Sequence record: OR836606.1
Source of the DNA: Staphylococcus phage LY01
Strand: one strand, 5' to 3'
DNA length: 64,000 nt
A model generated the notes under the pieces. That model was not told the DNA's origin. It did not search any database and was given only the letters and a program-made list of their open reading frames with translations. Below, piece after piece: positions 552 to 53,050 of the stretch (position 1 is the first letter of the stretch; each line of letters begins with the position of its first letter). Both the position numbers and the translations under genes were made by a program.

Positions 552-600
552 AAAAAAATAATTATAATACAGTGACAAATTAATGTCACTGTATTATATT
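552..600 (-). terminator. rho-independent terminator downstream of 599..2782
   Basis: Inverted repeat acagtgacaaattaatgtcactgt adjacent to an A/T run immediately 3' of the minus-strand stop codon. Confidence 0.45.
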
Positions 601-2782
601 AATAAATCATAATAGTTCTACCGCAATCATAAATTCTATTAGGATTATTAGGATCTTTCTTTTCAAGTCTTTTGCTTCGATATTTAACTTTTCCTTTAGT
701 TCGGAAATTTCTATAATCTGGCGATTCTTCTTCAATACTAACGAATCCATATTCTTTAAATTTATATTTGTTATAAGAATCAGATCTTAAATTAAAAATA
801 ATATTTGGATATTGATTTAAAATTAAATCAATATCTGCATTGGTCCTATAATTAGTGCAATAATTATTAGATATACCTTTATTATTATAAGAAAATACAG
901 ATATTAAAGTGTTTTTATAAAAAATTCCTTTATAAAATTTATCTTCTTTATTAAAGAAATCTAAAGAGTGATTTTTATAAAATTCTTTTATTTGTGTATA
1001 ACTTATTTTTCTTATTTCTAAATTATTTTCTATTTCTTTATCAATATTAAGATTTTTATCACCAAACAATAGAATTTCTTTTAAGATTTTACTATATTGA
1101 TTTTTTATATGCTCATACTTGTTAAAGAATTGATCTTCATATAGATTTATTAATTTATAACCTTTATTTTCCATTATATCCATTTTTTCTTTTTGATGCG
1201 TTTTTGCGTAATGTTCATCTTTAATCATATTTGAATGCCATCTTAATCCATTTACTTCAATACCCAAACCAATATCTTCTATAAAAATATCTATTTCTTT
1301 TCTATTACCTAGTATTAATCTATTAGAAATTTTAATATTTTGATACAGAGTATATTTTTTGATAATATTAAATAGAGTATCTTCTAAACTTGAAGGACCC
1401 GCAAATTTACATTTAGGACAACCTCCTCCTTTTATAATATTCTCTACTCTAGATTCAAAATAACCATGTTTTTTACATCCAAATATTGATACAGCTTTAT
1501 CATAATCATATTGAAAATTGAATTTATCTAAAATTAGTTGATCTTTTCTTTTATAACGTATCTTATATTTATAAAATTCATTTTTCTGTTTTTGATTGAA
1601 TTGTATTTTTGCTATCATTCCTTTTTCTCTATTATTTAAGTTCTTATCTTTAAATAACTCAAAAGGTGTATACTTTTTAAAATTGGTTTTAATGCTTATT
1701 AAAGGAATGTCTTTTTTATTTAGAGGTTTTCCTGTAAAATTTCCTGCTTTTTCTCTTTTAATAGCCGCAGTTTTTTCTAAAGCACATTTTCTACAACCAT
1801 AACCATTTGAATGAGATCTTAAAGATGTTCGAACTCTACCATGTTTTTTACATTTTATAATTACATGATCTTTATTAAAATTATTAAATCTTAATTCACT
1901 ATAATCATATTTATTGTTATGGATATAACTTAATTTCATTTTCATAAATTCATTTTTTTCATCAATATTAAATTTTATATAATTCTTACGAAAATCTTTA
2001 TCGCCTTTTTTCCATTTTTTAAACAAAGATTCTGGAGTTTCTTTTTTACTAATAGATGCATTTCTTTTTATTTTTTCTTTAACACAATCAGGACAGCTTT
2101 CATTATTTCTTTTAGAATAGTGGTTTACTGCTATTATTTCAAATTTTCTGTTGTGTTTTTTACATCTTAATTTTAACCTACAATGCCTTCCTGTATATAC
2201 TGCTTCAGAATAATCATATTTCTTTTCATATTCTGGGTGTCTTTTAAAAACATTTTTTAAAAATTGTTCTTTCGTTAAAATTTTATTTTTACTATCTCTT
2301 TCTTTTTGACATTTAGGACAATCTACAAATCTTAATAAATGATTACTTATACTTCTTTTGAAGGTGCCATGTTTTTCACATTTTATTTCTATATAGGTCG
2401 ATTTATTATAACGTTTATCTAAGTCTAAATTAGGATAAGTAAATTTATCACCATATATCTCTTTAAATTTAGATAAAAATTCTCTTCCAGTTAGATAATG
2501 TTTTTCTTCATAACATTTAACACATCTTTTAGCACATTTAGCATTGCCCCATAAATCAAAATATTTCTCATGTCCTTTTTCACATGTATATTTTATTCTT
2601 AAATCTTTTTTCTTCATCCCTTTACTATAATTCAATATCTCTATACTACCACCATAAGCATTAAGTAATTTACTCATACTTTTTTCTATATCTTTTTTAG
2701 TAAATGTAACCATTATCCTTTTCATCTCCGTTAAATTTATTTTTATAATTATGAATGTATATTTTAAATTAATACATAACAA
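599..2782 (-). CDS. multi-zinc-ribbon protein with C-terminal Vsr/DUF559-like (PD-(D/E)xK) endonuclease-like domain; possible homing/HNH-like nuclease
   Basis: 727 aa ORF. Five tandem repeats of roughly 110 aa, each with the pattern C.KHG.F......H....G.GC.KC (paired CxxC). C-terminus ...EIDIFIEDIGLGIEVNGLRWHS... resembles the very-short-patch-repair/DUF559 restriction-endonuclease-like fold. Confidence 0.45.
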   Translation of the reverse strand: MLCINLKYTFIIIKINLTEMKRIMVTFTKKDIEKSMSKLLNAYGGSIEILNYSKGMKKKDLRIKYTCEKGHEKYFDLWGNAKCAKRCVKCYEEKHYLTGREFLSKFKEIYGDKFTYPNLDLDKRYNKSTYIEIKCEKHGTFKRSISNHLLRFVDCPKCQKERDSKNKILTKEQFLKNVFKRHPEYEKKYDYSEAVYTGRHCRLKLRCKKHNRKFEIIAVNHYSKRNNESCPDCVKEKIKRNASISKKETPESLFKKWKKGDKDFRKNYIKFNIDEKNEFMKMKLSYIHNNKYDYSELRFNNFNKDHVIIKCKKHGRVRTSLRSHSNGYGCRKCALEKTAAIKREKAGNFTGKPLNKKDIPLISIKTNFKKYTPFELFKDKNLNNREKGMIAKIQFNQKQKNEFYKYKIRYKRKDQLILDKFNFQYDYDKAVSIFGCKKHGYFESRVENIIKGGGCPKCKFAGPSSLEDTLFNIIKKYTLYQNIKISNRLILGNRKEIDIFIEDIGLGIEVNGLRWHSNMIKDEHYAKTHQKEKMDIMENKGYKLINLYEDQFFNKYEHIKNQYSKILKEILLFGDKNLNIDKEIENNLEIRKISYTQIKEFYKNHSLDFFNKEDKFYKGIFYKNTLISVFSYNNKGISNNYCTNYRTNADIDLILNQYPNIIFNLRSDSYNKYKFKEYGFVSIEEESPDYRNFRTKGKVKYRSKRLEKKDPNNPNRIYDCGRTIMIY

Positions 2783-2873: not shown

Positions 2874-3300
2874 TTATTCTATATAACTTTCTATATCTAC
2901 TTCATTTTGTTTAATTGTCATGTCATGGAAAGATTTCATTGAGCTTGTTACAATAGCTTGAGCCACTTGGTTGACCAGTAGACCAATATTCTCAATTCCT
3001 AATTTATAAGGTAATTCTCCCGCACATTTACTACAAATATCTTCATTAGCACAATACATAGGACTTCTAAACTCTAATACTTTACCCATATAATCATCAA
3101 CATTTTCAGGAGTTAACAAAATTAATTGACCCGATCTCGCATTGTTATCTTTGAAATATCTATACATCATTAATGATGCGTTTGACTTGTCTAATGTCAA
3201 TTTAAGAAAATGATTCGTTCTACAATCCGAACCTTTTTTATCTAAAACTGTTGTTTGAAAGGCTGACATCAATTGCTTGGCTTGATCTAATTTAATTTTT
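2874..3300 (-). CDS. rpoC: RNAP beta-prime subunit, C-terminal exon (region F/G, trigger-loop region); spliced, no own start codon needed
   Basis: RSPMYCANEDICSKCAGELPYKLGIENIGLLVNQVAQAIVTSSMKSFHD aligns to E. coli beta-prime [65 protein letters not shown] aligns to EDDCGTHEGI. The reading frame is open upstream of the annotated Met as far as the intron boundary. Confidence 0.65.
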
Positions 3301-3449
3301 CTGTATTAGTACAATACAGATAAGACTATATCTTCTAATGTAATATATTTAGTCGTTGAACAACTTGTATTAAGTTGATGCTGATTAATCTAATAAGATA
3401 CTTCCAGCAATTAATATTATTTAATGTGAGCATCAAGTTTACCCACCTT
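3301..3449 (-). mobile_element. mini group I intron (family copy, minus orientation) in beta-prime C gene
   Basis: On the minus strand it contains the family core TTAATTGCTGG / ATCAGCATCA / GTTCAACGACTAAATA / GATATAGTCT plus a P9 hairpin (ctgtattgtactaatacag). It is flanked by coding sequence that aligns to beta-prime. Confidence 0.6.
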
Positions 3450-3461
3450 CTTGAGTCATTT

Positions 3462-3636
3462 ATGTTAACTATATTAAAATAATACAGATCAGACTATATC
3501 AAAAACTCTATATGAGCTTAATTATATTTAGTCGTTGAACACTATTTTTAGTGATGCTGATTAACTTAATAAAGGATCTCAGCAATTAATAATTTTTCGT
3601 ATATTATATTACTATAATAAAGGGCATTCATATACC
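3462..3636 (-). mobile_element. mini group I intron (family copy, minus orientation) in beta-prime C gene
   Basis: Same P/Q/R/S core elements as the other copies. The 5' leader aatgccctttattatagtaatataatatacgaaaaat is shared with the copies at 10056 and 10669. About 12-17 nt of exon (atgactcaagaaggtgg) separates it from the intron at 3301-3449. Confidence 0.6.
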
Positions 3637-4431
3637 TAGTGCACGTCCAGCTGAACCAGCAGTCATGACATCTCCAAACATATAAAGTTCATTAGGATCA
3701 ATTCCTTCAGCTAGTGAGCTTTTAGCAATTCTAATTTTACTTGGATCAGCAAAGTTTTTATTGGCTCCACGAATCAATGCAGTTAATTTATAGTTATTAC
3801 CGAATGAACCACGTGAACCACTATCATAAATATCTAAATCGGCTAAACCTTTTAATTCTTCTTTACTTAATTTAATTAATTCTTTTTCAATAGCAGATAT
3901 TGCGTTTAATTCTTCTCCAGAAGTATTCAACTCTTTTTCATATTTAACTAATAATTCTTCTTTCTTTTGTTTAACCTTATCAGTAGCAGTCATCATTGTA
4001 GTAGTTAAACTAGAATTAATAAAACTAGCTATAGAGAATCCTAACCATTGTAATTTATCAATGTAATCTGACATTTCTTGTGTAGTAATAATATCATTGA
4101 GTAATAAGTTTGATAAATCAGATTGAAGCTTACCAATTCCAGAACCACCCATATCGTGATTCATATATCCTATAATTGGCCCAATTTTATTATCTAAAAT
4201 AAATTTATTAAATATATATCTACCTACAGTAGTCTTTTCATCTTTTTTATTATAAACTAAATCTTTTTTTAATGTAAATTTATCTGATGGATTATACATT
4301 GGTTCTGTATTCTGTCTAAAGGCAAATAATTCTTTTAACTTGTCTAATGTAATATCATCTTTACCAACACTTAATAATGTAGATACTTCTTTTTCGTTAA
4401 GTGTTTTATTCTCATAATTCATATTAGCCAA
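3637..4431 (-). CDS. rpoC: RNAP beta-prime subunit, middle part (regions E-F), start of the C-terminal beta-prime gene
   Basis: TTVGRYIF aligns to E. coli TTVGRAIL. YDSGSRGSFGNNYKLTALIRGANKNFADPS aligns to [28 protein letters not shown]. The annotated C-terminal tail ...GI and its stop are read-through into the intron; the true exon ends near 3637. Confidence 0.6.
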
Positions 4432-4970: not shown

Positions 4971-6560
4971 TTGAAATATCTTAATAGATTAAAAAATCTT
5001 AAATTCTATTCAATATCTGGATATAAAATTAAAGCTATTGATGAAGAAATCGAAGATAAGAAAAAAGATCAGTTAGTTATTTATAAAGGTTTTAAAGAAA
5101 ATTCATTTACTGATTTTTTAAATAGTGGATTATTATATCATCAGAATTTTAAGAATATCTATATTCCGAGATTGTATAGAACTAGAAATAGAAGAACTAG
5201 ATTATTAACAAATATAACAGATTATCAAAAAGAGATTAAATCTAAATCTTACAAACAGTATAGAGTTGAAAGAAATGAGAAATTATTTAAAGGTAGAAAC
5301 TATATTGTTGATTCAACTAAATTTATTGATTTAGAAGATAAATCATTAATAACTAGAAATTTTAATACAGTATTGGATTCAATTAAATCAACTTTTAATT
5401 CTTTAAATAATGCAGAAGATTACAATAATTTATTATATGTAATTAATGTTGATGGGTATAATAAGTCTTCTCAAGAAGCAATTAGACCTAATACAAAAGA
5501 TTTCATGTCAAGCTTATTCATGATGATTAAGAATCAAGAGGAATTACCTCATGGTGAAAATCAAAATATTAATTTATTATTTGTCTCATTAGATAATGGA
5601 ATAATGTTTAAATTTGATTATAAAGATTATAATAAACTTAATATGAGACTTAGACAAAGATTAAGAAGAATCATTGATACTAATACACAAGCATTAGATA
5701 CTGATGAAATTAGTAAAGTTGAAGATGATGACAATACTGAAGCTGTAGATGGAGTAATTAAAAAGAAAGCATTTGATAATGTAGGAACAATTGATCCTAT
5801 CGAAGCTCAGAACGATGAAGCTGAATATGAAAATGATGAACAGTTAGAAAAAATATCTAATAAAATAGATTCTACAATAAGTTATATTAGATCATTAGAC
5901 AATACTGAAATGGATGTTGATGATGAATATAATATAGCTATGATAATTGAAAAAGAATTAAATAATAATAAAGATTTAATTGATATTGATACTGAAACAT
6001 TATATTCGGATGTATTGGATAAAAATGATTCATTTAAATCAATTAAGAGAAATATTAAAAATAAATCTAGTATTGGCGATGAAGCACTTAAAAATACTAA
6101 AAAGATATTAGCTTTATCCAAGAAACAAGATGAATACCTTAATGATTTAGAGGATTTTAGCTTTTCTGAAGATAAATTAATCGATAGAGAAATTAATGAA
6201 AATATTAATAATATTAATGAAGAGACTATTAATAATATTGCTTCTAATGATTTTGATGTTTCTTATATGCAAAAAACATTTAATAAAGACTTTATTGATA
6301 TAATGAAAAGCTTTAATGACAATGAAGATATTCCGGTATTTATTAATAAAATGAATATTGAAGATAATTCAGATAGTCAATCATTAAAAAATACAGTTAA
6401 AGTTCAATTTAGAAGTCCAGACGGTTTAACTCATAATGTTAAATTTGATGTTCCTAAAGTTATTGACGGTAAGTACATGAAGCTTAACGGTGGGAAAAAG
6501 ATATTAACTAAACAGTTAATGATGTGGCCAATCGTTAAATATAAACCGGATTGTTCATAA
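4971..6560 (+). CDS. rpoB: RNAP beta subunit, N-terminal exon 1
   Basis: C-terminal part VQFRSPDGLTHNVKFDVPKVIDGKYMKLNGGKKILTKQLMMWPIV aligns to E. coli rpoB [35 protein letters not shown]. A long acidic insertion is present. A Shine-Dalgarno-like sequence lies upstream. Confidence 0.55.
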   Translation: MKYLNRLKNLKFYSISGYKIKAIDEEIEDKKKDQLVIYKGFKENSFTDFLNSGLLYHQNFKNIYIPRLYRTRNRRTRLLTNITDYQKEIKSKSYKQYRVERNEKLFKGRNYIVDSTKFIDLEDKSLITRNFNTVLDSIKSTFNSLNNAEDYNNLLYVINVDGYNKSSQEAIRPNTKDFMSSLFMMIKNQEELPHGENQNINLLFVSLDNGIMFKFDYKDYNKLNMRLRQRLRRIIDTNTQALDTDEISKVEDDDNTEAVDGVIKKKAFDNVGTIDPIEAQNDEAEYENDEQLEKISNKIDSTISYIRSLDNTEMDVDDEYNIAMIIEKELNNNKDLIDIDTETLYSDVLDKNDSFKSIKRNIKNKSSIGDEALKNTKKILALSKKQDEYLNDLEDFSFSEDKLIDREINENINNINEETINNIASNDFDVSYMQKTFNKDFIDIMKSFNDNEDIPVFINKMNIEDNSDSQSLKNTVKVQFRSPDGLTHNVKFDVPKVIDGKYMKLNGGKKILTKQLMMWPIVKYKPDCS

Positions 6561-6803
6561 CAGTCCACTTTTATAGCAATATGAAAGTAAAAAGAATATT
6601 AATTGCTGAAACGGTTTTATTAAATTAATCAGCATCAATTATTATTAATTGTTCAACGACTAAATATATTCACTCTTATTGAGAGTATGATATAGTCTGT
6701 GCTCTAAATTGATAATTTAGAGATTGTATAAAATACAGATAAAAAATTCATATCAGAATTTCTCTTAACATATTTTTATAATATGATTAGGAGGTGAAAT
6801 TAA

Positions 6804-8006
6804 ATGATAAACAAAAACGGAAAATTAGTTAAATCTTTCAAAACTAGAATATACCCAAATCAAGATCAAATAAATTATTTCAATAAATGTTTTGGTGTAA
6901 GAAGAAAAATATGGAATATGGCTTTAGAAGACTATCAAAATAAAGATGATGACGCTCAATTTAGCGGATTTGATTATCAGAAAAAATTAAATAATGAAAT
7001 TTATGAATCTGGTAAATATCCCTATCTTTATGAAGTTAATAGCATGGTTAGACAAGAAGCTTTAAAAGACTTAGATGAATCTTTTAAAATATATAGAAAT
7101 GAACAAAAGAAAGCTAGAAAGTCTAAAGATGCAATTGACACTGAAAAATTTAAACCCAAGTTTAAAAAGAAAAAACATTCTAATGAGTCATTTAGATTTA
7201 TGGTTAAAGATAAGAAATATTTACCTATTAGATTTTTATCTAAGAAATGGATAAAAATTTCCGTAATGAAAGGAATTAAACCTTTTATAATCAAATCTAA
7301 AGAATCAATGAAGTTTATTAATTCTAATAACCATAGATTTCTCACTTACACTATAAGCAGAAAGAATGAAAAATATTATATTTCTGTAACTTATGAGATA
7401 AACAATTATAAGAAACAGAGATTGAATAATGATTCAATTGGTATTGATATGGGTATGAAAACACCATTAGTATGTGTAGATTCAAATGGTCAAACATTTG
7501 AATTTAAAATCCCACATAACTTATGGAAACAAGAAAGAAAAACTGAGAAATTGCAAGCAAAACTATCAAGTAAGAAATATTATTCAAAATCATATTACAA
7601 AACTTTAAAACAATTAAGAAAATCTTATAATAGAGAGTGTAATATATTAGAAGATTATAGAGATAAAATCACTAATTGGTTAGTTAAAAACTATAAAGTG
7701 ATTAATATTGAACCATATAGTCATAAAGCTTCTAATAATTTAAGAAATGCTCGTAGATCTAATAGAAGATTTGGCAAATATGATTTCCTAGAAAAATTAA
7801 AGTATAAGATTTTACAATATGATAATGAATTGAATATAATTACTAAAAAGAAAACTACACAAACATGCTCATCATGCGGTTATGTAAGAACTAACGATGA
7901 GAAACTTGTCATTGGCGATGATATTCATGATTGTCCTAAATGTAATGTAGTTCTTGATAGAGATTTAAATGCGGCTAAAAATATTCTAGATTTAAAATAT
8001 GTTTAA
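6804..8006 (+). CDS. tnpB: TnpB (IS200/IS605 OrfB-family RNA-guided nuclease), no TnpA
   Basis: RuvC-I (IGIDMGMK) and RuvC-II (VINIEP) motifs, Zn-finger (CSSCGY...CPKCN), and RuvC-III (DRDLNAAKNIL). Strong Shine-Dalgarno site. Confidence 0.85.
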   Translation: MINKNGKLVKSFKTRIYPNQDQINYFNKCFGVRRKIWNMALEDYQNKDDDAQFSGFDYQKKLNNEIYESGKYPYLYEVNSMVRQEALKDLDESFKIYRNEQKKARKSKDAIDTEKFKPKFKKKKHSNESFRFMVKDKKYLPIRFLSKKWIKISVMKGIKPFIIKSKESMKFINSNNHRFLTYTISRKNEKYYISVTYEINNYKKQRLNNDSIGIDMGMKTPLVCVDSNGQTFEFKIPHNLWKQERKTEKLQAKLSSKKYYSKSYYKTLKQLRKSYNRECNILEDYRDKITNWLVKNYKVINIEPYSHKASNNLRNARRSNRRFGKYDFLEKLKYKILQYDNELNIITKKKTTQTCSSCGYVRTNDEKLVIGDDIHDCPKCNVVLDRDLNAAKNILDLKYV

Positions 8007-8180
8007 TTAATTTCACAAAATAAAAGATATGAGAGTCGCCTGCGGTCAGCGGGAGACGATAAACGGGTGATAAGCTAATGTCTGATTAGCTTTACAAGGA
8101 GTACAGAGGTACCTCTATACGTTAGTCACTGAGCCAAGTGTATTTTATACAAGATCTTGCCTTTAGATTTAATTATTTAA
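8007..8180 (+). ncRNA. putative omega-RNA / IStron right end
   Basis: A GC-enriched segment with several hairpins (gtcgcctgcggtcagcgggagac...) lies immediately 3' of tnpB. This is atypical for a genome at about 25% GC and sits where TnpB guide-RNA scaffolds are encoded. Confidence 0.45.
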
Positions 8181-8189
8181 AATCAAGAT

Positions 8190-9556
8190 TTAACAAGACA
8201 GACAGTATGGATTACAACTAACTATAATAAATTCATTATAGAAAAATTTGGTTATAAAGAAAATGCTGAAACTGAATGGATCAAGAAAGTTATTGAAGAT
8301 GACCAAGTTATAGATTATATTGAAAATAAATCTAACTTATCTGTTAAAAAAGGTAATGCTTCTTTAATCAATAATAAATATGTAACTTCAGTTATTTATA
8401 ATAGCTTATCTAGAAATATATTAAATTTCCAAGATGACACTAATGTACTTGAATTTAATCAAAGAAGTTTATTAGCGATGATTTCTGATAGTGCTAGTTT
8501 ATCTAAAATTGATTATGATCAAGATAAATATTTCCCTATTGGTTATAATATTAATAAATCTAAATTAATATTAGCAGATAAGACAGAATCTGTTATGTAT
8601 GAATGTAGTAAGACTAATATTAAGTCAATGGAAATGAATATATTTGATTACCTTATTGATAAATTAGACAATGAAGTTGACTTTGGTGTTATTGATAAGA
8701 AATTCAGTAAGAATATTCAGGCTAATAAGACTATGGCATTTTCACGTGTTAAAATTACTAATAAATTAGTACCTACAATTTTATTATTAGGTTTCTATAA
8801 AGGTTTAACTAGTATTCTTGATCTTTATGAAGTTGATTATAAATTTACTACTGAGAATGAAAGAATTAGTATTCATGATAAAAAGAATAAAATTAAATTC
8901 CAAGATGGTTATTTAATATACTCTACTGATAAATTAAGATATGATTTATTAATGTCTGGATTAACTGTATTGCCTACATCACAATACAATTTCAGTGATT
9001 TTGAAACTGAAACACCTTACTTAGAATATTTCAATGATAAATTCTACAGTCGTAATGTTGGTAAAGGTATCAAAAATACTATGGATTTAGCAATGGATCC
9101 TATTACTAAAGAAGTATTAAGGGATTTAAAACTTCCTGATAATATGGTTGAATTATTACTATTAGCTAATACGATGTTAGAAGATGTATCAGCTAGAGAT
9201 CATAATGATATGGGAATTTATCGTGTACGTGGCCCAGAACAAATTAATGCATTATTATATAAAATGATGGCAAATGCTTATAAAGAATATTCAGATTCTT
9301 ATAATAATAAAAATCCTAAGAATATTTCAGTTAAACAAGATCAATTAATTAAAACTATTATGGAACAACCTACAGTGGATGAAGTATCTGATTTAAACCC
9401 TAACTTAGAAATAGATAAGATGACTTCTGTTACATTTAAAGGACCTGCTGGACGTAACTCTGAACAATCATATGAACCTGATATTCGTTCTTACGATGAA
9501 AGTATGCAAGGTATATTAGGAATAAGTACACCTGACAGTAATAAGGTAAATTACTT
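8190..9556 (+). CDS. rpoB: RNAP beta subunit exon 2
   Basis: The frame is open from about 8200, upstream of the annotated ATG at 8478. KGPAGRNSEQSYEPDIRSYDESMQGILGISTPDSNKV aligns to E. coli [39 protein letters not shown]. The annotated C-terminal LPLITVM* is intronic read-through. Confidence 0.6.
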
Positions 9557-9725
9557 GCCCTTAATTACAGTAATGTAATTCAATGAAAATTTATTAATTG
9601 CTAAAAATCTTTATTAAGATGATCAGCATCACTAAAAATAGTGTTCAACGACTAAATATAAATTCACTTATTATAAGTGTAAGATATAGTCTAATCTGTA
9701 TTAGATTATTATAGAATAATACAAA
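9557..9725 (+). mobile_element. mini group I intron in beta gene
   Basis: Family core elements; P8 hairpin cacttattataagtg; P9 ctgtattag...taataca. The exon ends ...AAGGT and the next exon begins after ...ACAAATG. Confidence 0.65.
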
Positions 9726-9885
9726 TGAGGTATTGTCAGACAACTTTCATATGATACACAAATTAAATCTACTCGTGGTTATACTGATGGTAGTAAAAAA
9801 GATGTAAGTGATACAGCTTTATACACACCATTAGAATTATTAAATCCATATACTAGTAGACATGCGGATATACGAAATGAGGTAA
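9726..9885 (+). CDS. rpoB: RNAP beta subunit exon 3 (about 50 codons)
   Basis: (G)IVRQLSYDTQIKSTRGY...LNPYTSRHADIRNE aligns to E. coli INSLSVYAQTNEYGFL...IPFLEHDDANRAL. Confidence 0.55.
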
Positions 9886-10031
9886 GTTCGCAATAAAATT
9901 ATTTAATTGCTGGAAAGCTTTATTAAGTTAATCAGCATCAGTTAAAGACTGTTCAACGACTAAATAATAATTACCATTTATATGGTGAAGATATAGTCTA
10001 ATCTATATTAATTTAATATAGAATAATAAAA
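9886..10031 (+). mobile_element. mini group I intron in beta gene (shortest copy; 5' leader GTAAGTTCGCAATAAAATTAT)
   Basis: Family core; P8 hairpin accatttatatggt; P9 ctatattaatttaatatag. Confidence 0.6.
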
Positions 10032-10055
10032 ATGTCACCTCGTATAGGAATGACT
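10032..10055 (+). CDS. rpoB: RNAP beta subunit micro-exon (about 8 codons, SPRIGMTG)
   Basis: Lies between two introns. With the flanking exons it reads HADIRNE-SPRIGMTG-TQAKHLIATKTNDRPLVGSG, which aligns to E. coli [30 protein letters not shown]. Confidence 0.45.
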
Positions 10056-10238
10056 GGTATTAAAATGAATGCCCTTTATTATAGTAATATAATATACGAA
10101 AAATATTTAATTGCTAAGAATCTTTAATTAAAGAAATTAGCATCAAATTAATACAATTTGTTCAACGACTAAATAATATTATACTTATTTAAGTATTTGA
10201 TATAGTCTGATCTGTATTAAATTAATACAGTTAACATA
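10056..10238 (+). mobile_element. mini group I intron in beta gene
   Basis: Begins after the exon ...ACTGGT and ends ...ACATAAATG. P5 stem shows covariation (GCTAA/TTAGC here versus GCTGG/TCAGC in other copies). P8 is atacttatttaagtat. Confidence 0.65.
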
Positions 10239-10668
10239 AATGACTCAAGCTAAGCATTTAATTGCTACTAAAACAAATGACCGTCCATTAGTTGGTTCCG
10301 GTGTAGATAAATCTTTAGCCTACCAAATTTCAGACACATTTGCTTTTAAAGCTAAAGAAGATGGAAAAGTAACTTCTATTAATGAGAAAACAGGATTAAT
10401 GATTGTTGAATATATTAATGGAGATAAAGATGTAATTGATATATCTGAAAAACTTGCTAAAAACTCTAATGGCGGATTTTATCAAAATAATAAACTTACA
10501 CCGCAATTTGAAGTAGGTAAGAAATTTAATAAAGGACAAATATTAGCTAAAAATGATAATTACTTTGCAGGTTCTGGTAGTAATAATGATATTCAATTCA
10601 CTGCTGGTAAATTATCTAAAGTTGCAGTAGCTAGCTCATATGGTATTATAAATGCCTTTCATTATAGT
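10239..10668 (+). CDS. rpoB: RNAP beta subunit exon 5
   Basis: TQAKHLIATKTNDRPLVGSGVDKSLAYQ...GKVTSINEKTGLMIVEY aligns to E. coli [29 protein letters not shown]. The exon ends ...VAVASSYG, aligning to VAFMPWNG. Confidence 0.65.
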
Positions 10669-10828
10669 AATATAATGTATAAAAAATATTTAATTGCTGG
10701 AAAGTCTTTATTAAGACAATCAGCATCATTAATTTATAATGTTCAACGACTAAATAATATTATACTTAATTAATATGTATTTGATATAGTCTAATCTGTA
10801 TTGATTAACTCTTAATGCAGTTAATATA
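10669..10828 (+). mobile_element. mini group I intron in beta gene
   Basis: Inserted between WNG|Y-NFED codons (exon ...TCATATGGT | intron ... ATAAATG | ACTTATGAGGAC). Family core elements present. Confidence 0.65.
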
Positions 10829-11591
10829 AATGACTTATGAGGACAGTTCTATTATTTCTAATAGTATGTCTGAAGCTATGTCAACTAAAGTTACTATGAA
10901 GAAAACAGTAAATTTAGCTTCCAATACGAATATTCAATATATTGTAAAAGAAGGTCAAAATGTACGTACAGGAGACCCATTAATGATATTTGAGAATTCA
11001 TTTGATGATGAAGGTATCGGTTCTTTATTAGATAAAATTGGATCTGAATTTGAACAAGAAATCCAAGATATTTCTAATAGAGCTGTTAGATCTAAATATA
11101 CAGGCGTAATTAAGAAAGTAAATATCTATTATAATGATGATATTGAAAATATGTCTCCTACATTAGCTAAATTGGTTAATAGTTATATTAATAAATCTAA
11201 GAATAAATATAAAGAATATAAAAATGCAGTTAAAGGTAACAAATCTACATTACCTGGATTAGATGTAGATATTCCTGCAGTTGAAAAAATCAATAATGAA
11301 AAAATTAAAGGTGAAAAAGTTGATGGTGTTCTTATTGAAATCTTTACAGAATATGAAGATGATATGAGTATCGGTGATAAGATTAGTTTCTATGGGGCGT
11401 GTAAAACGGTCATTGCTGACGTTACTCCACCTGACGAATCCCCTTATGCAGAATATAGACCTGATGAAGAAATTGAAGCTATATTCTCTCCATTAAGTAT
11501 CGTGTCTCGTATGACTACAGATATATATCTCATGTTGTTTACCAATAAAGCACTCATAGAGCTTAAGAGAAAAGTTAAAGATATGCTTTAA
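10829..11591 (+). CDS. rpoB: RNAP beta subunit C-terminal exon
   Basis: TYEDSSIISNS aligns to E. coli YNFEDSILVSE. MSIGDKISFYGACKTVIADVTPPDESPY...EAIFSPLSIVSRMTTDIYLMLF aligns to GDKMAGRHGNKGVISKI...[20 protein letters not shown]. Confidence 0.75.
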
Positions 11592-16776: not shown

Positions 16777-17862
16777 ATGGCAGAAAACAATGAAATTTTA
16801 ATAACTGTTCCTCATAAAACATATATACCTAATAAAGGAATGGGACCAATAAATAAACCTTTTTATGTTGACAAAGATATTTTAAAATTATATGACTTAA
16901 TGAATATACAATATAAGAGAATAACCGATTATGATTATACAGATATAAATGAAGATGGAAAATATGAAGTTAAAGAAATCAAATCAGTGGAAGATTATAT
17001 TGAACAGAAGTATTTACAAGTTAATGAAATATTTAAACAAATAAAAATTATGTCTAATGATAGTGAAAATATTAATAGAGAAATAGAAGATAAATTTGAA
17101 AAAGTTAAAAAGAACTTAATTAACGCTGACAGTCTTGATGCATATTTGAGCGATCTTGATAAATTTAAATATGATATAGAAGATAAAAAACTAGATCTCC
17201 AAACTGAAAAAGAAAATGTAATTTCAACAATAGAAGATATGAATAATAAATTGGATAGTGTGAAAGAAACTTTATCTGATTTTGAAAATGTAAGAGAACA
17301 ATTCAATAGTAATTATAACAACACAATGAGTCTTAATGATGAAATGCAGAACTTAAGTGAAACTGCAAACTATATTAAGAGCATGGTAAATGATGTAGCT
17401 AATGTAGAAAAAAAATTAAATCTTATAAAAGATAAAACTGCAGAATTAGAATTATCACAGGAATCATTTAACAATAGTATAAGTGATTTTGAAAATAAAT
17501 TATTAGATTATAAAGAGAATCTTAAAAATTATATGATAGAAAATGCTGAAATGTATAAAGGTGAACCAGGCAAACAAGGACCAAAAGGAGAACCTTTCAA
17601 ATATTCTGATTTCACTCCAGAACAATTAAAGGAATTAAAAGGAGAACCTTTCAAATATTCTGATTTCACATCAGAACAATTAGAAGAATTAAAAGGAGAA
17701 TCTTTTGAATATTCTGATTTTACTCAAGATCAATTAGAGCTATTAAAAGGTGAAAAAGGTGATAAAGGAGATTCAGTTCCTCCTAAAGTATTTACCAAAG
17801 AAGAATATGAAAATTTACCAAATAAAGATCCAAATACTCTATACTTTATAAGTGAGGGATAA
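16777..17862 (+). CDS. tail fibre-like protein with coiled coil and collagen-like/tandem repeats
   Basis: Coiled-coil heptads; GEPGKQGPKGEP followed by three tandem repeats of about 20 aa (FKYSDFTPEQLKELKGEP), then GEKGDKGD; C-terminal ...DPNTLYFISEG. Confidence 0.5.
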   Translation: MAENNEILITVPHKTYIPNKGMGPINKPFYVDKDILKLYDLMNIQYKRITDYDYTDINEDGKYEVKEIKSVEDYIEQKYLQVNEIFKQIKIMSNDSENINREIEDKFEKVKKNLINADSLDAYLSDLDKFKYDIEDKKLDLQTEKENVISTIEDMNNKLDSVKETLSDFENVREQFNSNYNNTMSLNDEMQNLSETANYIKSMVNDVANVEKKLNLIKDKTAELELSQESFNNSISDFENKLLDYKENLKNYMIENAEMYKGEPGKQGPKGEPFKYSDFTPEQLKELKGEPFKYSDFTSEQLEELKGESFEYSDFTQDQLELLKGEKGDKGDSVPPKVFTKEEYENLPNKDPNTLYFISEG

Positions 17863-17867
17863 TTAAT

Positions 17868-18578
17868 ATGATTAATATAGGAAAACAAACAATCCCTTTT
17901 TTGTATAAAGGAAATAATCTTTTATACCCAAGTATAACAAAAGAAAATTTAGTATTGTATTTGGATTTTAAACAATTAACCGGTAAAAGAATTAATAATC
18001 GTCAAATGAAAGATTTGACTTTAAATAATAATATAACATTCAATAATTTCCCAATTTATCCAAATAATTTAATAATGGATTCTATCAAGCTTGACGGAAT
18101 TGATGATTATATCCTTAGTGATGCTAAAGTTGGCGGAAAATCTTTCACCTTACTTCAAAGTCTAGAGATTGTTAGTGATAAAGAACAACAGTTTTTCCAC
18201 TGTTTTAACAATCCTTCTTTTTATATGAGAAAATATCGAAATTTATTACAGTGCTCAGTTAATTATGGGACGCAGACATTAATAACTGCAAATGATATTT
18301 TTCTAGAATTTCCTAAAAAAATTTTTATAGGTTACTCATTCGATTATGAAAAGAAAGAAATAAAACTAATAATTAATGGAAATATTGTTGATAGTAGAAT
18401 TATCACTATCACGTCAAATGTTGATTTAACATTAACTAACATAGGACAGTATTACACTCCTAGTAAAACATATAATTTTGATGGTAATCTTTGTTCTATT
18501 TCATTGTATGATAGAGCTTTAACTAATGAAGAAATAATGAAAAATTATTTAGTGGATAAAGAAAGATGGGGTGTTTAA
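17868..18578 (+). CDS. LamG/concanavalin-like domain protein (paralog 1)
   Basis: N-terminus GKQTIPFLYKGNNLLYP is paralogous to the next ORF; C-terminal LamG-like region (IINGNIVDS...). Start overlaps the preceding stop. Confidence 0.45.
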   Translation: MINIGKQTIPFLYKGNNLLYPSITKENLVLYLDFKQLTGKRINNRQMKDLTLNNNITFNNFPIYPNNLIMDSIKLDGIDDYILSDAKVGGKSFTLLQSLEIVSDKEQQFFHCFNNPSFYMRKYRNLLQCSVNYGTQTLITANDIFLEFPKKIFIGYSFDYEKKEIKLIINGNIVDSRIITITSNVDLTLTNIGQYYTPSKTYNFDGNLCSISLYDRALTNEEIMKNYLVDKERWGV

Positions 18579-19406
18579 GTGAGTATAATAAGAATGGGTG
18601 ACAAATCTATTGCCTTTGTATATAAAGGTAATGATTTAATTTATCCAAATCCTATTGAAGATGGTTTAATATTATGGTATGATTTTGCGGGAATGAAAAA
18701 TGATAGTGTTAATAAAAATATTACAAAAGATTTAACTAAAAACACAAATGAAAGTGCTAAACACTTTAATTTTTTATACAATTCTCAAAGCGGTTATAAT
18801 AAGGGAATAAAGTTTGATGGCATTGATGATGAAATTATTCCAATGATAAAATATAAAGACGATATAACACGACAGCTAGATATGAAAAAAATAAATAATG
18901 GTCAAATCTTTTCAATTGAAATGACATTAAAAATGTCAGATAAGATTATAGACAAAGGATCAGAAATATTTATGACTGACAAAACATATGGTAGGTTCTG
19001 GTTACAATTTTTGAAAGATAATAACTATACAGAGACTGATGAGTTTGTTATATCTGCTTCAACATATTATGGAAATGAGGGTGGAAGAAATACTTCTGCC
19101 TTTAGCATAAAAGAATCATATAAATACGGAGATGAATTTCATTTAATTACTACATTAGATAAAAATGATAAAATCGTATTATATGTAAATGGAATAAAAA
19201 AAGATGAAAAAACTTTAGGTGACATTGCAATTACGACACCTCAGGAGGAAGAACTTTTAGTTTATATAGGTCAAGGAGATTCAAGTACGTATTATCGTAG
19301 ATTTGATCATGAAATATACTCAATGAAAATATATGACAAGGTTCTTACTGAAGAAGAAGTTAAACATAATTATGAATTGGAAAAAGTAAGATGGGAGTTA
19401 GAATAA
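18579..19406 (+). CDS. LamG/concanavalin-like domain protein (paralog 2), possible receptor-binding protein
   Basis: GDKSIAFVYKGNDLIYPNP; HLITTLDKNDKIVLYVNGIKKDEKTLGD is typical of the laminin-G/ConA-like fold. Confidence 0.5.
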   Translation: MSIIRMGDKSIAFVYKGNDLIYPNPIEDGLILWYDFAGMKNDSVNKNITKDLTKNTNESAKHFNFLYNSQSGYNKGIKFDGIDDEIIPMIKYKDDITRQLDMKKINNGQIFSIEMTLKMSDKIIDKGSEIFMTDKTYGRFWLQFLKDNNYTETDEFVISASTYYGNEGGRNTSAFSIKESYKYGDEFHLITTLDKNDKIVLYVNGIKKDEKTLGDIAITTPQEEELLVYIGQGDSSTYYRRFDHEIYSMKIYDKVLTEEEVKHNYELEKVRWELE

Positions 19407-19520
19407 TAATCTAAATAATGAACTATCTTTTTTGATTATTATGACTTACTCAAGAAAAATAGATATATGATAGATTGTTGCTATTAAATATTATAGATTA
19501 GAAAAAGAAAGAAGTGATAT

Positions 19521-19745
19521 TTGATGAAATTTGTTATTGCAAATATAGAATTATTTGAGAGAATGGGATACAATACTAAATATTGGAGAAAATCAATAGA
19601 TGGTAATAAAACTATTTGTCATTTAGAATATGCTGAGATTTTAGATAACGGAATTCAAGAAGAACCAGATACTTTAGTTGTTGATGCAGCTGAAGCTCAA
19701 GATATTATGAATTCTGAAGAATGGACTAGTAAAGAAGAAGAATAA
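19521..19745 (+). CDS. hypothetical small acidic protein
   Basis: 74 aa ORF upstream of the lysin genes. No transmembrane segment, so not an obvious holin. Confidence 0.35.
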   Translation: MMKFVIANIELFERMGYNTKYWRKSIDGNKTICHLEYAEILDNGIQEEPDTLVVDAAEAQDIMNSEEWTSKEEE

Positions 19746-19787
19746 AAACAAGTAAATATAATAAAAATAATTGGAGGAATTTTAATA

Positions 19788-36548: not shown

Positions 36549-36714
36549 AGTCATAATCTAGCTTTTATATTTATTAAATATAAAATAGACTATATCATAC
36601 TCATTAATATGAGTGAATATATTTAGTCGTTGAACAACTCTTATTAAGTTGATGCTGATCATTCTAAAAAGAACGTTCCAGCAATTAATATTCTTTTAAT
36701 GGAACCTATTATCA
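36549..36714 (-). mobile_element. mini group I intron in DNA polymerase gene (minus orientation)
   Basis: Family core elements. Splits the Exo II motif between ...ICTAWN and LDYDFP (T4 ...IFTGWN|IEGFD). Confidence 0.6.
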
Positions 36715-37018
36715 ATTCCATGCAGTACATATGTCAGGCTTACTAATTTCATTAATATAATATAAGAAAGATTTAATTACTTGCATTTCTGTATCTAATT
36801 CATATATCTCAAATTCTAAACCTAAATTTTTACCAATTTCACTATTTTCATTATTATAAATTTCATTTAAGTTTTTAATTAATTTATCTTGATCTTCCAT
36901 AGTTTCTTTATAAGTGTCAGTGTCATATTTAAGAGCAAATGTTAATACTTTTTTCTTACTCCAATCCACTACAGTTATAATATTTATCTCTGCCTCAGCT
37001 TTAAGCGGGTCCGGGACA
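36715..37018 (-). CDS. DNA polymerase part 1, exon 2 (Exo II region)
   Basis: VPDPLKAEAEINIITVVDWSKKKVLTF aligns to T4 FPDPMKAEYEIDAITHYDSIDDRFYVF. PDICTAWN aligns to PAIFTGWN. Confidence 0.7.
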
Positions 37019-37151
37019 ATTTGTATTAAAAGTAATACAAATTAGACTATATCTTCTTAGTAATATATTTAGTCGTTGAACATTAAATTTTTAATGATGC
37101 TGATTATCTTAATAAAGAATTTCCAGCAATTAATATTATTTTATCTGAGCT
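37019..37151 (-). mobile_element. mini group I intron in DNA polymerase gene
   Basis: Family core. The junction ...TTAAAGGT | intron | CCCGGACCC restores LKVPDP in frame. About 133 nt, among the smallest copies. Confidence 0.6.
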
Positions 37152-37642
37152 ACCTTTAACCCAGTTACTTGAGATCCATCAACCTCAATATCGAATAGAC
37201 ATATATCTATACCAACTTTACTGTCTAAATTCTTTTTAATATACTCATTGATATTATAATCTTCTATATTTATATCAGAACCATGAGCATTATTTAATAA
37301 ATGGAAATCTTTTAGTTTTCTATATTCTTGCCAATTACCTGACTTCATAATTCTATCGTATTCTGCTTTATCTTGAGAATTACCAGCTTCTTTAACTACT
37401 GATTTGATAATATCTTTATGCTTACAAATAACAGTTCTTACTTTATCTTTTTCAATAGAACCTACAATTTTATTAGGAGGTAACCAATGTTCATCTTTAG
37501 TTACATAATAATGCATCATAGGATCTGTTATTTCCATATGTTTTTTAGTACCATCCTCTTCTTTAACTACCATTACTACTTTTTCTTTACCAGAAGCAGT
37601 TTCTTTTTTATTTAAATATGTTGATTTAATGAATCTTCCCAT
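37152..37642 (-). CDS. DNA polymerase part 1, exon 1 (N-terminus, Exo I motif)
   Basis: ICLFDIEVDGSQ aligns to T4 ANCDIEVTGDK (Exo I DxE). The annotated tail VAQIK* is intron read-through. Confidence 0.7.
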
Positions 37643-37761: not shown

Positions 37762-37917
37762 AATTAAATAAACAATGGTTCTTCCATAAAAGAATCCTCA
37801 GCAGTATCAACTTCATCTTGTTTATAAATTGTCTTATTTAAAAATAATTTAGTGGCTATTGTTGAAGATATAAATAATATAATTGATATAAAAATGATTA
37901 ATAATTTCTTTTTATTC
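37762..37917 (-). CDS. small membrane/secreted protein (51 aa)
   Basis: MNKKKLLIIFISIILFISSTIATKLF... has an N-terminal hydrophobic helix. Below the 60 aa ORF-track cutoff. Confidence 0.35.
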
Positions 37918-37958
37918 ATAGAATTTCATCTCTCCTCTAGATATAAAATAAAGTCTTT

Positions 37959-38156
37959 TTAGAAAAATGTATTTTTAACATTTAGCATTTCAATTCGTTT
38001 ATTAACGATATTAATATCCTTTTGAATTTCTTCTAATTTATCTTTATCAGGGCCATTAGTATGATGTGCTCCATTATTTAATATAATTTGGTAGTGTAAT
38101 TTATTAAATCTTTGAACTAATTTCATTTCATCTAATTTGTTTGTTTTATTTAACAT
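37959..38156 (-). CDS. hypothetical small protein
   Basis: 65 aa ORF upstream of the DNA polymerase gene. Confidence 0.3.
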   Translation of the reverse strand: MLNKTNKLDEMKLVQRFNKLHYQIILNNGAHHTNGPDKDKLEEIQKDINIVNKRIEMLNVKNTFF

Positions 38157-38171
38157 ATTATCATCTTATCC

Positions 38172-48015: not shown

Positions 48016-48120
48016 ATCTTTTCCACTCCCTTAATTAGATTAATATAGAGATAATGAATTAATATAATTCATTATCTCATTTTTATAATATATATTTACA
48101 TACATTTTTCATCTAAATAA

Positions 48121-48165
48121 AAGAGATAACGGACAATTATAGTCCGTTATCTCATCTTTTTAAAT
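48121..48165 (-). terminator. rho-independent terminator of the beta-prime N gene
   Basis: On the minus strand: gagataacggactataattgtccgttatctc hairpin followed by a T-run, directly after the TAA stop. Confidence 0.55.
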
Positions 48166-48198
48166 TTATTCTTTAGTTAAAGAGTATAAAGCTTGTAC
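48166..48198 (-). CDS. rpoC: RNAP beta-prime N gene, last exon (VQALYSLTKE*)
   Basis: Joined to the previous exon it gives ...NESNMLVQALYSLTKE, aligning to E. coli ...PSQDVVLGLYYMTRD. Confidence 0.5.
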   Translation of the reverse strand, partial: VQALYSLTKE

Positions 48199-48327
48199 CA
48201 TATTATTTATGATAATTAGACTATATCTTCTTAGTAATATATTTAGTCGTTGAACAACTTATATTAAGTTGATGCTGATTAATCTAATAAGATACTTCCA
48301 GCAATTAATATTATTTATTGAGAGCAT
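48199..48327 (-). mobile_element. mini group I intron (minus orientation)
   Basis: Family core elements; 3' end ...ATAAATAATATG. Confidence 0.55.
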
Positions 48328-48461
48328 ACAAGCATGTTACTCTCATTACCCAAATTACGTACTGAATTACCAGTGTAGTTTAGGTAGTTAGTTTTCTTAT
48401 TAAGAAGTTTATTAGCTTCTTTATTAGCCTCTACAGTCCAGAGAGATCTGATAGAAATCAT
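48328..48461 (-). CDS. rpoC: RNAP beta-prime N gene exon (DMISIRSLWTVEANKEANKLL...)
   Basis: D-MISIRSLWTVEANKEANKLLNKKTNYLNYTGNSV aligns to E. coli [36 protein letters not shown]. Confidence 0.6.
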
Positions 48462-48621
48462 ATCCATTTACGTTATCTATATTAAGATAATATAGATCAG
48501 ACTATATCTTTACTTTAATAAGCATATTATATTTAGTCGTTGAACACTATTTGTAGTGATGCTGATTAAGATAATAATCTTTCCCAGCAATTAATAATAT
48601 TTAAATACGGCAATATAAATT
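48462..48621 (-). mobile_element. mini group I intron (minus orientation)
   Basis: Family core; 5' end GGT|AATTTATATTGCC..., 3' end ...AACGTAAATG|GATATG. Confidence 0.6.
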
Positions 48622-48630
48622 ACCGTCAAA
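48622..48630 (-). CDS. rpoC: 9-nt micro-exon TTTGACGGT (Phe-Asp-Gly of the catalytic NADFDGD loop)
   Basis: The splice model gccgaT | intron | TTTGACGGT | intron | GATATGATTTCT reads ...LGADFDGDMISIRSL, reconstituting the universally conserved ADFDGD. No other junction choice gives the motif. Confidence 0.5.
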
Positions 48631-48811
48631 CGTTTATGTTATCTATAATAAATGATATCATAGACCAGACTATATCATCATCTCAATTGAGATATATTAT
48701 ATTTAGTCGTTGAACAACTTATATGAAGCTGATGCTGATTGCTCTAATAAGAGTTTTCAGCAATTAATAATATTTTCATTCTTAAATCACTTTAAGAAGC
48801 GACTTTTTCAA
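48631..48811 (-). mobile_element. mini group I intron (minus orientation)
   Basis: Family core. Its 5' leader GTCGCTTCTTAAAGTGATTTAAGAATGAAAATATTATTAATTGCT is shared with the copy at 49393-49550. Confidence 0.6.
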
Positions 48812-48825
48812 ATCGGCACCTAACG
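48812..48825 (-). CDS. rpoC: 14-nt micro-exon (..LGAD) of beta-prime N gene
   Basis: cgttaggtgccgat lies between the large intron and the next mini intron and supplies G-A-D of GADFDGD. Confidence 0.4.
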
Positions 48826-49200
48826 CTATTTAATTTATAATTAAATTTGGACTATATCATAAACCTAAATATTAGGTTCCCTCACACTTCGGGAATTCAT
48901 TTCCCTACTCTACTCACTTCGTTATAGTATTTCAACTATACTTATTCTCTATATAAGAGTTACATTTATTGTTTTCGATAGTCTCTGAACGTTTATCCAT
49001 CATGTGGATACTTCGCTGCTAGACTTTCCCATTATTAAATACCCTTAGCATTTTCAGCATAGGTCATCAAAGAGATTTTTTCTGTCTTTCGACTGCATGT
49101 CACGCTATCCATTACTGGCATACGTTGTAGCTCTCTAAGCATTAGGGTTTACAAGCAATTCATAAGGTATTTTTTATCCTATATTACTATAAGACTGGAG
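48826..49200 (-). mobile_element. larger group I intron (about 370 nt, no ORF), same R/S core with expanded peripheral domains
   Basis: The minus-strand reading contains GAATTGCTTGTAAAC (P), GTTCAGAGACTATCGAAAAC (R-like) and GATATAGTC (S). It is about 80% identical to the segment at 56265-56640. The 5' boundary is uncertain (about 49190-49215). Confidence 0.55.
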
Positions 49201-49392
49201 CGTAAGTTACTCCGGCATAACTGTTGTGTATAATAGCGGTATCTATAAATACATCTTCATCAACAGGATATTCATGAACAACTTTAGGATAATCTTTAAG
49301 TACAATATCGTCTAAAGTAATTTCAGGAATTGTATCAACTGTAGTCAATATTTTAATTTTGGCAGGTGCAACATTCAAGAAATTTTCGCAAA
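49201..49392 (-). CDS. rpoC: RNAP beta-prime N gene exon
   Basis: (C)ENFLNVAPAKIKILTTVD...NSYAG; follows region ...HVVYSRYPINTLV, which aligns to E. coli EHPVLLNRAPTLHRL. Confidence 0.45.
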
Positions 49393-49550
49393 CTATATTA
49401 AATTAATACAGATCAGACTATATCATTACCTACTTTTAGGTATATTATATTTAGTCGTTGAACAAGTTTAATTGACTTGATGCTAATTAACCTATTAAAG
49501 TCTTTTAGCAATTAATAATATTTTCATTCTTAAATCACTTTAAGAAGCGA
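49393..49550 (-). mobile_element. mini group I intron (minus orientation)
   Basis: Family core elements; 3' end ...TTTAATATAG. Confidence 0.6.
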
Positions 49551-52863: not shown

Positions 52864-53050
52864 TTATTTAAAAATGTATCTTAAAAAAGATACATTTCTA
52901 TTACAATTTTATAATATATATTTTAACATAAATTAAAAATTTATGCAAGAAATTTTATATGAAAGTTGATAAATTTTTCTAATTATATAAAATCAATTAT
53001 TTTATCTGAATACATACCAATATTTTCCAATATGTATCCAGATAAATTAT

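Follow-up and report, generated by a model that had tools for sequence, protein, structure and literature searches.

Structure of the virion RNA polymerase beta-prime mid locus

The stretch analyzed here, called the window, comprises 64,000 nucleotides (nt) of Staphylococcus phage LY01 (record OR836606.1), and has a base composition of about 25% G+C. Its closest relatives are PBS1/AR9-like Staphylococcus jumbo phages: S6, PALS_2, DC4, Madawaska and MarsHill are about 92-94% identical to the window, and Machias, AH12 and PB50 about 81%. This work deals with the virion RNA polymerase (RNAP) beta-prime mid gene, which lies at positions 2874-4431 on the minus strand, and with two small insertions that interrupt it. 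An earlier prediction from the sequence alone (the original prediction) had described a beta-prime C-terminal gene with two tandem mini-introns; the gene is indeed a beta-prime gene, but not the C-terminal piece, as the GenBank label of the Machias orthologue is 'viral RNA polymerase beta-prime subunit, mid-domain', that is, a piece of a three-part virion beta-prime.

In the window, the gene shows up as two minus-strand open reading frames (ORFs) with 355 nt between them. The upstream ORF (3628-4431) terminates in ...TAGSAGRALGI*, and the downstream one (2874-3272) opens at an internal TTG. The 355-nt gap carries two copies of a repeated element containing GUUCAACGACUAAAU...GAUAUAGUC, which correspond to the J6/7-P7 and J8/7-P7 core of group I introns.

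Exons, introns and exact junctions

The junctions were set by aligning the window with the intron-less alleles of S6, Madawaska and SA1, where the gene is uninterrupted and comprises 1227 nt, encoding 408 amino acids (aa). The following features were obtained:

Exon 1, 4431..3634, minus strand, 798 nt, ending in ...GCA CTA GGT (GRALG); taken from the ORF list and collinear with the S6, Madawaska and SA1 coding sequences (CDSs).
Intron 1, 3633..3457, minus strand, 177 nt, no ORF, ending in ...AACATAAATG; based on the intron-less alleles, Rfam and the family model.
Micro-exon, 3456..3441, minus strand, 16 nt, ACTCAAGAAGGTGGGT; contiguous with both flanks in the intron-less alleles.
Intron 2, 3440..3287, minus strand, 154 nt, no ORF, ending in ...AAATTAG; based on the intron-less alleles, Rfam and the family model.
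Exon 3, 3286..2874, minus strand, 413 nt, starting with ATCAAGCC and running to the stop codon; based on the alignment with the intron-less alleles.

The order at the spliced junctions is thus GGT^ACTCAAGAAGGTGGGT^ATCAAG (here and below, a caret marks a junction), and the S6 sequence running through the micro-exon and its flanks is ACTCAAGAAGGAGGGT. The original prediction had placed the introns at 3462-3636 and 3301-3449, with a micro-exon of about 12-17 nt and junctions regarded as ambiguous. Both elements and the micro-exon are there, but the intron-less alleles fix the junctions to the base and move intron 1 to 3457-3633 and intron 2, whose 3' end had been set 14 nt short, to 3287-3440, leaving an exon of exactly 16 nt (3441-3456). 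In the 17-mer atgactcaagaaggtgg formerly placed between the two copies, the leading ATG belongs to intron 1, whose 3' end it forms with G as the terminal base, and the final GT of the exon is absent. An end of intron 2 at ...ACAG (3301) was rejected, since it would yield ...TQEGG* and no workable frame; the real end is the G of ...AAATTAG (3287).

Exon 1 closes with the U of the 5' splice site, and the micro-exon codes for T-Q-E-G-G and the first base of a Tyr codon, exactly as the intron-less genes do; exon 3 completes this codon (AT CAA GCC AAG...) and continues with QAKQLMSAFQ... An in-frame TGA lies two codons into intron 1, and a TAA stop arises across the 5' junction of intron 2. Without splicing the product would end in ...GRALGI*, and removal of intron 1 alone would give ...TQEGG*, while skipping of the micro-exon shifts the frame and leads to a stop. 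Only with these 16 nt is the reading frame kept. Our reading of the locus, to which we assign a probability of about 0.9, is one continuous beta-prime 'mid' gene that was invaded by two separate small group I introns, 16 nt apart, in the codons of the bridge helix.

The predicted product and the bridge helix

With 1227 nt (408 aa), the spliced ORF is as long as its counterparts in S6, Madawaska and SA1. Across the junctions the predicted protein reads ...GRALG-TQEGG-YQAKQLMSAF..., identical to the intron-less proteins; the stretch ...GRALGTQEGGYQAKQLM... is likewise identical in the spliced ORF and in the proteins of these three phages, and the junction-spanning peptide is ...ALGTQEGGYQAK... 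The spliced protein aligned with the bacterial beta-prime bridge helix without gaps over AGSAGRALGTQEGGYQAKQLMSAFQTTVLDKKGSDCRT (which includes AGSAGRALGTQEGGYQAKQLMSAFQ), the micro-exon coding for the middle of the helix. This alignment bears out the earlier proposal that the micro-exon and its flanks supply the corresponding segment of Escherichia coli beta-prime.

Compared with S6, exon 1 showed 35 synonymous and 10 non-synonymous codon differences, and the micro-exon together with exon 3 (143 codons) showed 36 and 5, respectively. The latter figures indicate that this frame, which the micro-exon restores, is translated, and purifying selection acts on the downstream exon in it. Such selection bears on the alternative that no splicing takes place, the gene being truly two polypeptides or else a pseudogene disrupted by repeat elements. 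Despite the fact that jumbo-phage RNAP subunits are naturally divided into several genes, and that the AH12 and PB50 records annotate the pieces as separate CDSs, a break of that kind would sit in the middle of the bridge helix with loss of TQEGGY, and the downstream piece starts only at an internal TTG. The inserts also show a group I core, U and G boundaries and covariation, as described below, and we consider this alternative very improbable.

In distant phages, homologues of the beta-prime mid protein (about 48% identity) often break off at the bridge-helix site. Truncation was found after SYSR in P0107, whose one intron, of about 385 nt, is of another type, after GRALG in P0004, and after ...GG in P0003, P0005, P0096, P0099, P0113 and P0119; at one locus among these last six, a 598-aa ORF with DUF7487 follows the truncated ORF. 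Judging from these protein comparisons, the bridge-helix site appears to be a hot spot of interruption in homologues.

Group I features of introns 1 and 2

The window was scanned with Rfam in gathering mode, where the gathering score of RF00028 is 50 bits, and also in E-value mode. In the latter, RF00028 matched the region of intron 2 (3301-3463) with 34.1 bits (E 1.5e-6) and that of intron 1 (3469-3677) with 24.3 bits (E 1.4e-3), with GUUCAACGACUAAAU and GAUAUAGUC aligned to the RF00028 consensus in both introns. Where the intron-less alleles place its 3' junction, each intron has a terminal G, and the U preceding each 5' splice site is wobble-paired (U.G) with the guide (GGU^A with GCC in intron 1; GUGGGU^ with GCUCAC in intron 2). 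The elements of the two guides and of P2 are:

Intron 1 guide, 3623..3625, minus strand, GCC, pairing with the exon end GGU (P1).
Intron 1 P2 hairpin, 3602..3619, minus strand, UAUUAUA-GUAA-UAUAAUA, with a GNRA loop (GUAA).
Intron 2 guide, 3426..3437, minus strand, 12 nt, continuous, CUUGAU-GCUCAC.

Intron 1 has P1, P2 and P3-P9, including a P8 of 6 base pairs (bp). Its P1 (GGUA/UGCC) consists of 3 exon bp and one intron-side A-U pair, and its P10 with ACUCA of the micro-exon, read by eye, is weak (4/5). As for intron 2, GCUCAC pairs with the micro-exon end GUGGGU as a 6-bp P1 with U.G at the splice site, and CUUGAU pairs with the start of exon 3, AUCAAG, as a 6-bp P10 that is contiguous with P1. 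P4, P5 and P6 were found in both introns. Minimum free energy folding returned P1, P4, P5, P6, P7 and P8 for intron 1 (z = -2.3), and P1, P4, P5, P6, P7 and P9 for intron 2 (z = -2.5).

P1, guide, core and terminal G are present separately in each intron. A twintron, with one intron inside the other, was rejected since the introns lie side by side with a true exon between them and a complete core in each. The label IStron was not applied to introns 1 and 2 either, since no ORF is present in either (177 and 154 nt).

A family of 15 related elements in the window

The window holds 15 occurrences of the core word GTTSAACGACTAAATAT, where 0.84 are expected; 0 of 100 shuffles have as many. A covariance model of the family core from P3 to the 3' end, termed R1, found exactly 15 strong members in the window, with scores of 99.7-142.4 bits and the next match at 21.5 bits; intron 1 scored 128.4 bits, intron 2 120.8 bits and an intron of the virion RNAP beta gene (10059-10242) 126.1 bits. 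When the boundaries of all window insertions were set against the intron-free S6 genome, the family proved to have 15 copies, of which one, of 1650 nt, carries an ORF and the other 14 are ORF-less introns of 140-188 nt. T is the last base of the 5' exon, and G that of the intron, in 15/15 copies. A fixed target motif of the IS605 type was discarded, as the 5' flanks of the copies share only that final T. The member at 48646-48819 passes the RF00028 gathering score (54.6 vs 50 bits). When viral contigs were scanned for the core word combined with GATATAGTC, the matches listed included many unrelated phage and giant-virus contigs; the motif is therefore the general group I core and not specific to this family.

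Covariation was counted on a 14-sequence alignment for helices P3, P4, P5, P6, P7, P8 and P9. Paired cells amounted to 97.2%, compared to 80.1% in shuffles and 27-47% with the partners slid, and both sides had changed in 23 of the 40 pairs; 0 of 500 shuffles reached any of the five measures. P3 forms 6/6 bp in every family copy, with covariation in 5/6 pairs, and both-side changes were found in 4/5 pairs of P5 and 3/5 pairs of P6. The copy at 54162-54315, whose guide contains AATTGCT, also has 6/6 bp in P3 of the alignment.

P8 was lost in 4/14 mini-introns, intron 2 among them. This loss is confined to copies without a GNRA-capped P2 (4/7 P2-less copies vs 0/7 with P2), and the P8-less copies are located in four essential genes of the phage. 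By analogy with the Azoarcus intron, the paired loss of P2 and P8 suggests a tertiary contact between a GNRA L2 and P8, which would predict such a pattern.

Occurrence in relatives and possible spread

S6, Madawaska and SA1 have neither intron. PB50 has intron 2 only, its exon 1 and micro-exon being contiguous, and Machias and AH12 carry both introns at the same two sites. The two tandem mini-introns first proposed for this gene were confirmed on the minus strand, and since they vary independently among relatives we conclude that they are two independently acquired elements and not one.

These observations also bear on the alternative that a single composite intron, or tandem twintron, made up of both modules and the 16 nt, is cut out as one unit. 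Tandem group I modules spliced as one unit do exist, such as cox3-640 in Ophiostoma mitochondria (PMC12308204), and the Machias GenBank record joins the gene from two pieces only. However, removal of 3633..3287 as a single unit would give ...GRALGIKPSN*, a frameshift, and S6, Madawaska and SA1 have the 16 nt as part of their exon, and PB50 has them joined to exon 1. Taken with the separate P1, guide and terminal G of each module, this makes the composite intron hardly credible.

The Gly codon paired to the guide is GGT in all four carriers of intron 2 and GGA or GGC in the three intron-less phages, a pattern that is compatible with a functional P1 or with co-conversion. A co-conversion tract, with Machias-like exon sequence beside the introns, was sought by eye and none was evident past the first 7 nt of exon 3.

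Among the window copies, the closest relative of intron 1 (84% identity) is the following:

Sister intron in the virion RNAP beta gene, 10059..10242, plus strand, 184 nt.

It ends in ...AACATAAATG^ACTCAAGC. The original prediction that its 3' junction is nearly identical to that of intron 1 was correct: both end in ...AACATAAATG, and the insertion site GGT^ACTCAAG is common to the two, identical over 10 nt. ACTCAAG is exon sequence, S6 having ACTCAAG in beta-prime and ACCCAAG in beta. Related introns at sites that share the guide complement would be expected from reverse splicing or from homing of relaxed specificity (PMC3984707). The introns could have spread either through guide-directed reverse splicing or through homing promoted in trans by free-standing nucleases of the phage, which is compatible with sister copies at GGT^ACTCAAG in two genes.

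Directly downstream of the beta-prime mid gene, positions 599-2782 (minus strand) hold a 727-aa ORF with repeated CxxC motifs and weak matches to REase_MTES_1575 and DUF723. AR9 has a 'Hef-like homing endonuclease' at the equivalent position. This ORF may encode a free-standing homing nuclease acting on the neighbouring gene.

Proposed splicing pathway and its weak points

According to the pathway that we propose, each intron would fold alone, and its guide would pair with the last 3-6 exon bases as P1, with U.G at the cleavage site. Free guanosine would attack at this site; the terminal G of the intron would then dock, P10 would align the next exon, and the exons would be ligated. The micro-exon would act as the 3' exon for intron 1 (ACUCA) and as the 5' exon for intron 2 (GUGGGU) and, since these two segments do not overlap, the two reactions could run independently and in either order. 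Once both introns were removed, the mRNA would code for 408 aa and the bridge helix of the protein would be intact, whereas translation of unspliced or half-spliced RNA would stop at the TGA or TAA just beyond each 5' junction.

Several observations weigh against two introns that splice in this way. The default gathering-mode Rfam scan of the whole window gave no matches, and both introns score under the RF00028 threshold of 50 bits. The exon-side P1 of intron 1 is very short (3 bp) and its P10 is weak. In both introns the helices are thermodynamically weak at 23-24% G+C, with z values of only -2.3 and -2.5, and P7, which pairs in all family copies, is invariant and thus lacks support from covariation. 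Intron 2 is devoid of P2, and its P8 has shrunk to C-AUUA-G, at most 1 bp; since P8 belongs to the canonical P3-P8 domain, autonomous catalysis of this intron is uncertain. Finally, the splicing of introns 1 and 2 in vivo is something that we infer from comparative sequence data.

That RNA alone would catalyse the reaction is a further step, and intron 2, without P2 and P8, may need a protein. We have thus to consider that the introns are spliced non-autonomously, the minimal intron 2 (perhaps all of the AT-rich mini-introns) depending on a phage or host protein or on in vivo conditions, which would affect only the self-splicing part of our interpretation. The absence of P2 and P8, the AT-rich helices and the modest z-scores point in this direction, as do the protein cofactors that many group I introns need (PMC2813881). 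On the other hand, P8-less copies occupy four essential genes of the phage, and cores of 112-116 nt, comparably short, recur in unrelated huge gut phages, although the one inspected is without P9 and not P8. We regard this dependence on help as a serious possibility, at somewhat less than even odds.

Unlikely, and a little more so, is a bolder proposal, namely that the P2- and P8-less copies of 140-154 nt, intron 2 among them, are autonomous ribozymes, which would multiply in the genome by guide-directed insertion at sites matching P1 and P10 and, through repeated insertion into one set of conserved codons, leave behind micro-exons of 9-24 nt in catalytic motifs (bridge helix, NADFDGD). Such copies would be, to our knowledge, the smallest natural self-splicing group I introns. 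The interpretation of the gene as one that carries two separate group I introns holds with either mode of catalysis.

Other introns and inserted elements

Five introns interrupt the RNAP beta-prime N-terminal gene (S6_0550 homologue; about 48100-50700, minus strand), three of which stand in tandem (48465-49209) across the catalytic NADFDGD motif:

NADFDGD tandem, first part, minus strand: ...GCCGGAG, 384-nt intron 49209..48826, 14-nt exon CGTTAGGTGCCGAT.
NADFDGD tandem, middle part, minus strand: 181-nt intron 48811..48631, 9-nt exon TTTGACGGT (F-D-G).
NADFDGD tandem, last part, minus strand: 157-nt intron 48621..48465, then GATATG...

The 14-nt and 9-nt micro-exons are shorter than the 16-nt one of the bridge helix. 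The 384-nt intron (48826-49209, minus strand) belongs to a different, larger group I type (27.2 bits with Rfam) and follows a G paired to C and not a U.G wobble; an intron similar to it lies in a metagenomic phage locus (L130, 3274-3680), in the bridge-helix region after SYSR.

Tandem mini-introns at 9870-10034 and 10059-10242 (plus strand), with a 24-nt exon, TCACCTCGTATAGGAATGACTGGT, between them, also occur in the virion RNAP beta gene, which has further introns at 9548-9727 and 10645-10832. For the intron at 9870, a 5' splice site after GAGGT was overturned by the S6 alignment, which places it after GCGGAT. The RNAP beta gene contains the family copy at 6552-8201 (plus strand, 103.5 bits with R1), an IStron-like element with a 400-aa TnpB/OrfB_IS605 ORF (6804-8006) in its 3' part; compared with S6 the insertion is exact, with a 5' exon ...CCGGAT and an intron end ...GACAG. 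A second TnpB-encoding insertion of 1912 nt (54832-56743, minus strand; ORF 55010-56158) lies in the DNA polymerase gene, and its flanks are contiguous in S6. Its 5' exon has ...GTGG and not a U at its end, a feature described for group B IStrons (PMC4227781), and no RF00028 match at E<0.01 was found in it.

Four mini-introns are located in replication genes on the minus strand (36562-36714, 37017-37158, 53752-53935 and 54162-54315), one of them splitting the DTDS motif of a divergent family B DNA polymerase (...GATACTGACAGT^intron^AAC...). The smallest copies in the window are 48199-48338 (140 nt) and 37017-37158 (142 nt). Segments 17764-19758, 37827-38171 and 51579-53044 are not collinear with S6 (replaced or inserted DNA), and the ORF at 51523-52863 has no clear Pfam match.

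Outside the window, arrays of compact cores recognized by R1 were found in two IMG/VR contigs of 306 and 359 kb from huge gut phages (L033, 3404-3760, and L041, 3172-4200, respectively). L041 has five cores within 1.1 kb in the RNAP beta-prime gene around NADFDGD, and L033 has two introns with about 14 nt between them (TGACACTTTCCCAT). Tandem mini-introns with micro-exons thus seem widespread.

Significance

The two introns with their micro-exon are a fairly ordinary case of an already known phenomenon; new here are the junctions at base level, a micro-exon absent from the annotations and the minimal structure of intron 2. As the public orthologue records are joined from two pieces or fragmented, the predicted protein lacks TQEGGY, six residues of the bridge helix. 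Gene callers will miss the micro-exons of 9-24 nt that are found repeatedly in the polymerase genes of the window. The family represents a natural series of group I introns from 188 down to 140 nt with correlated loss of P2 and P8, on which it could be tested how little fold is needed for splicing in vivo. Moreover, the way in which ORF-less introns spread could be tested with the sister copies, whose 10-nt sites in two genes are identical, and with close relatives in which neighbouring sites are occupied independently.

Comparison with known systems

Introns in RNAP subunit genes have been predicted in MarsHill-like Staphylococcus jumbo phages and in Bacillus phage AR9 (Korn et al., bioRxiv 10.1101/2020.12.14.422802; Lavysh et al., 2016, cited there). 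The passages of Korn et al. that concern them deal with the same phage group and the same gene: the Machias orthologue is annotated as intron-disrupted, and intron number and position vary between phages. There, the introns were inferred by protein alignment only, and those passages contain no RNA structure, junction rule or micro-exon. The two-piece join of Machias and the fragments of AH12 and PB50 cannot include the micro-exon. The AR9 orthologue, g264, is uninterrupted.

The gut 'Jug' jumbo phages have, according to the relevant passages of PMC12880540, 18.5 short ORF-less group I introns per genome, of about 206 nt on average, which fragment essential genes; splicing was backed by metatranscriptome reads for 37/76, a precedent for the splicing proposed in LY01. 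Micro-exons do not appear in those passages. The Jug phages represent another lineage with another host, and the LY01 introns are shorter (140-188 nt). Compact cores, some of them in tandem, were found by R1 in IMG/VR contigs of huge phages.

Classical phage group I introns without ORFs are typically about 250 nt or more in length and keep P2 and P8, and we know of no exon of 16 nt or less between such introns. Like the introns described here, those of T4 (td, nrdB, sunY), Twort (orf142, nrdE) and SPO1 are group I ribozymes at conserved sites of essential genes, several of which may occur per gene, with an in-frame stop close to the 5' splice site (see also PMC3984707). Surveyed bacterial tRNA group I introns cover 184-894 bp (PMC13011429), and 140-154 nt is at or under the usual low end of group I intron size; our literature search found no authoritative minimum length for these introns.

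In fungal mitochondria, side-by-side group I introns with 18-nt exons are known, exons of 3 bp and 1 nt having been reported elsewhere, and mini-exons in mitochondrial genes are commonly overlooked in annotation (PMC12308204). These tandem introns differ from those of LY01 in being organellar, large and usually endonuclease-encoding, and some pairs splice as a unit (PMC12308204). IStrons, chimeras of a group I intron and IS605/IS607 elements, have known ORF-less derivatives and also occur in phages (PMC4227781, PMC3984707). Introns 1 and 2 differ from IStrons in having no ORF and insertion sites that share the terminal T only, whereas they resemble them in that one copy of the same ribozyme family (6552-8201) carries a TnpB/OrfB_IS605 ORF.

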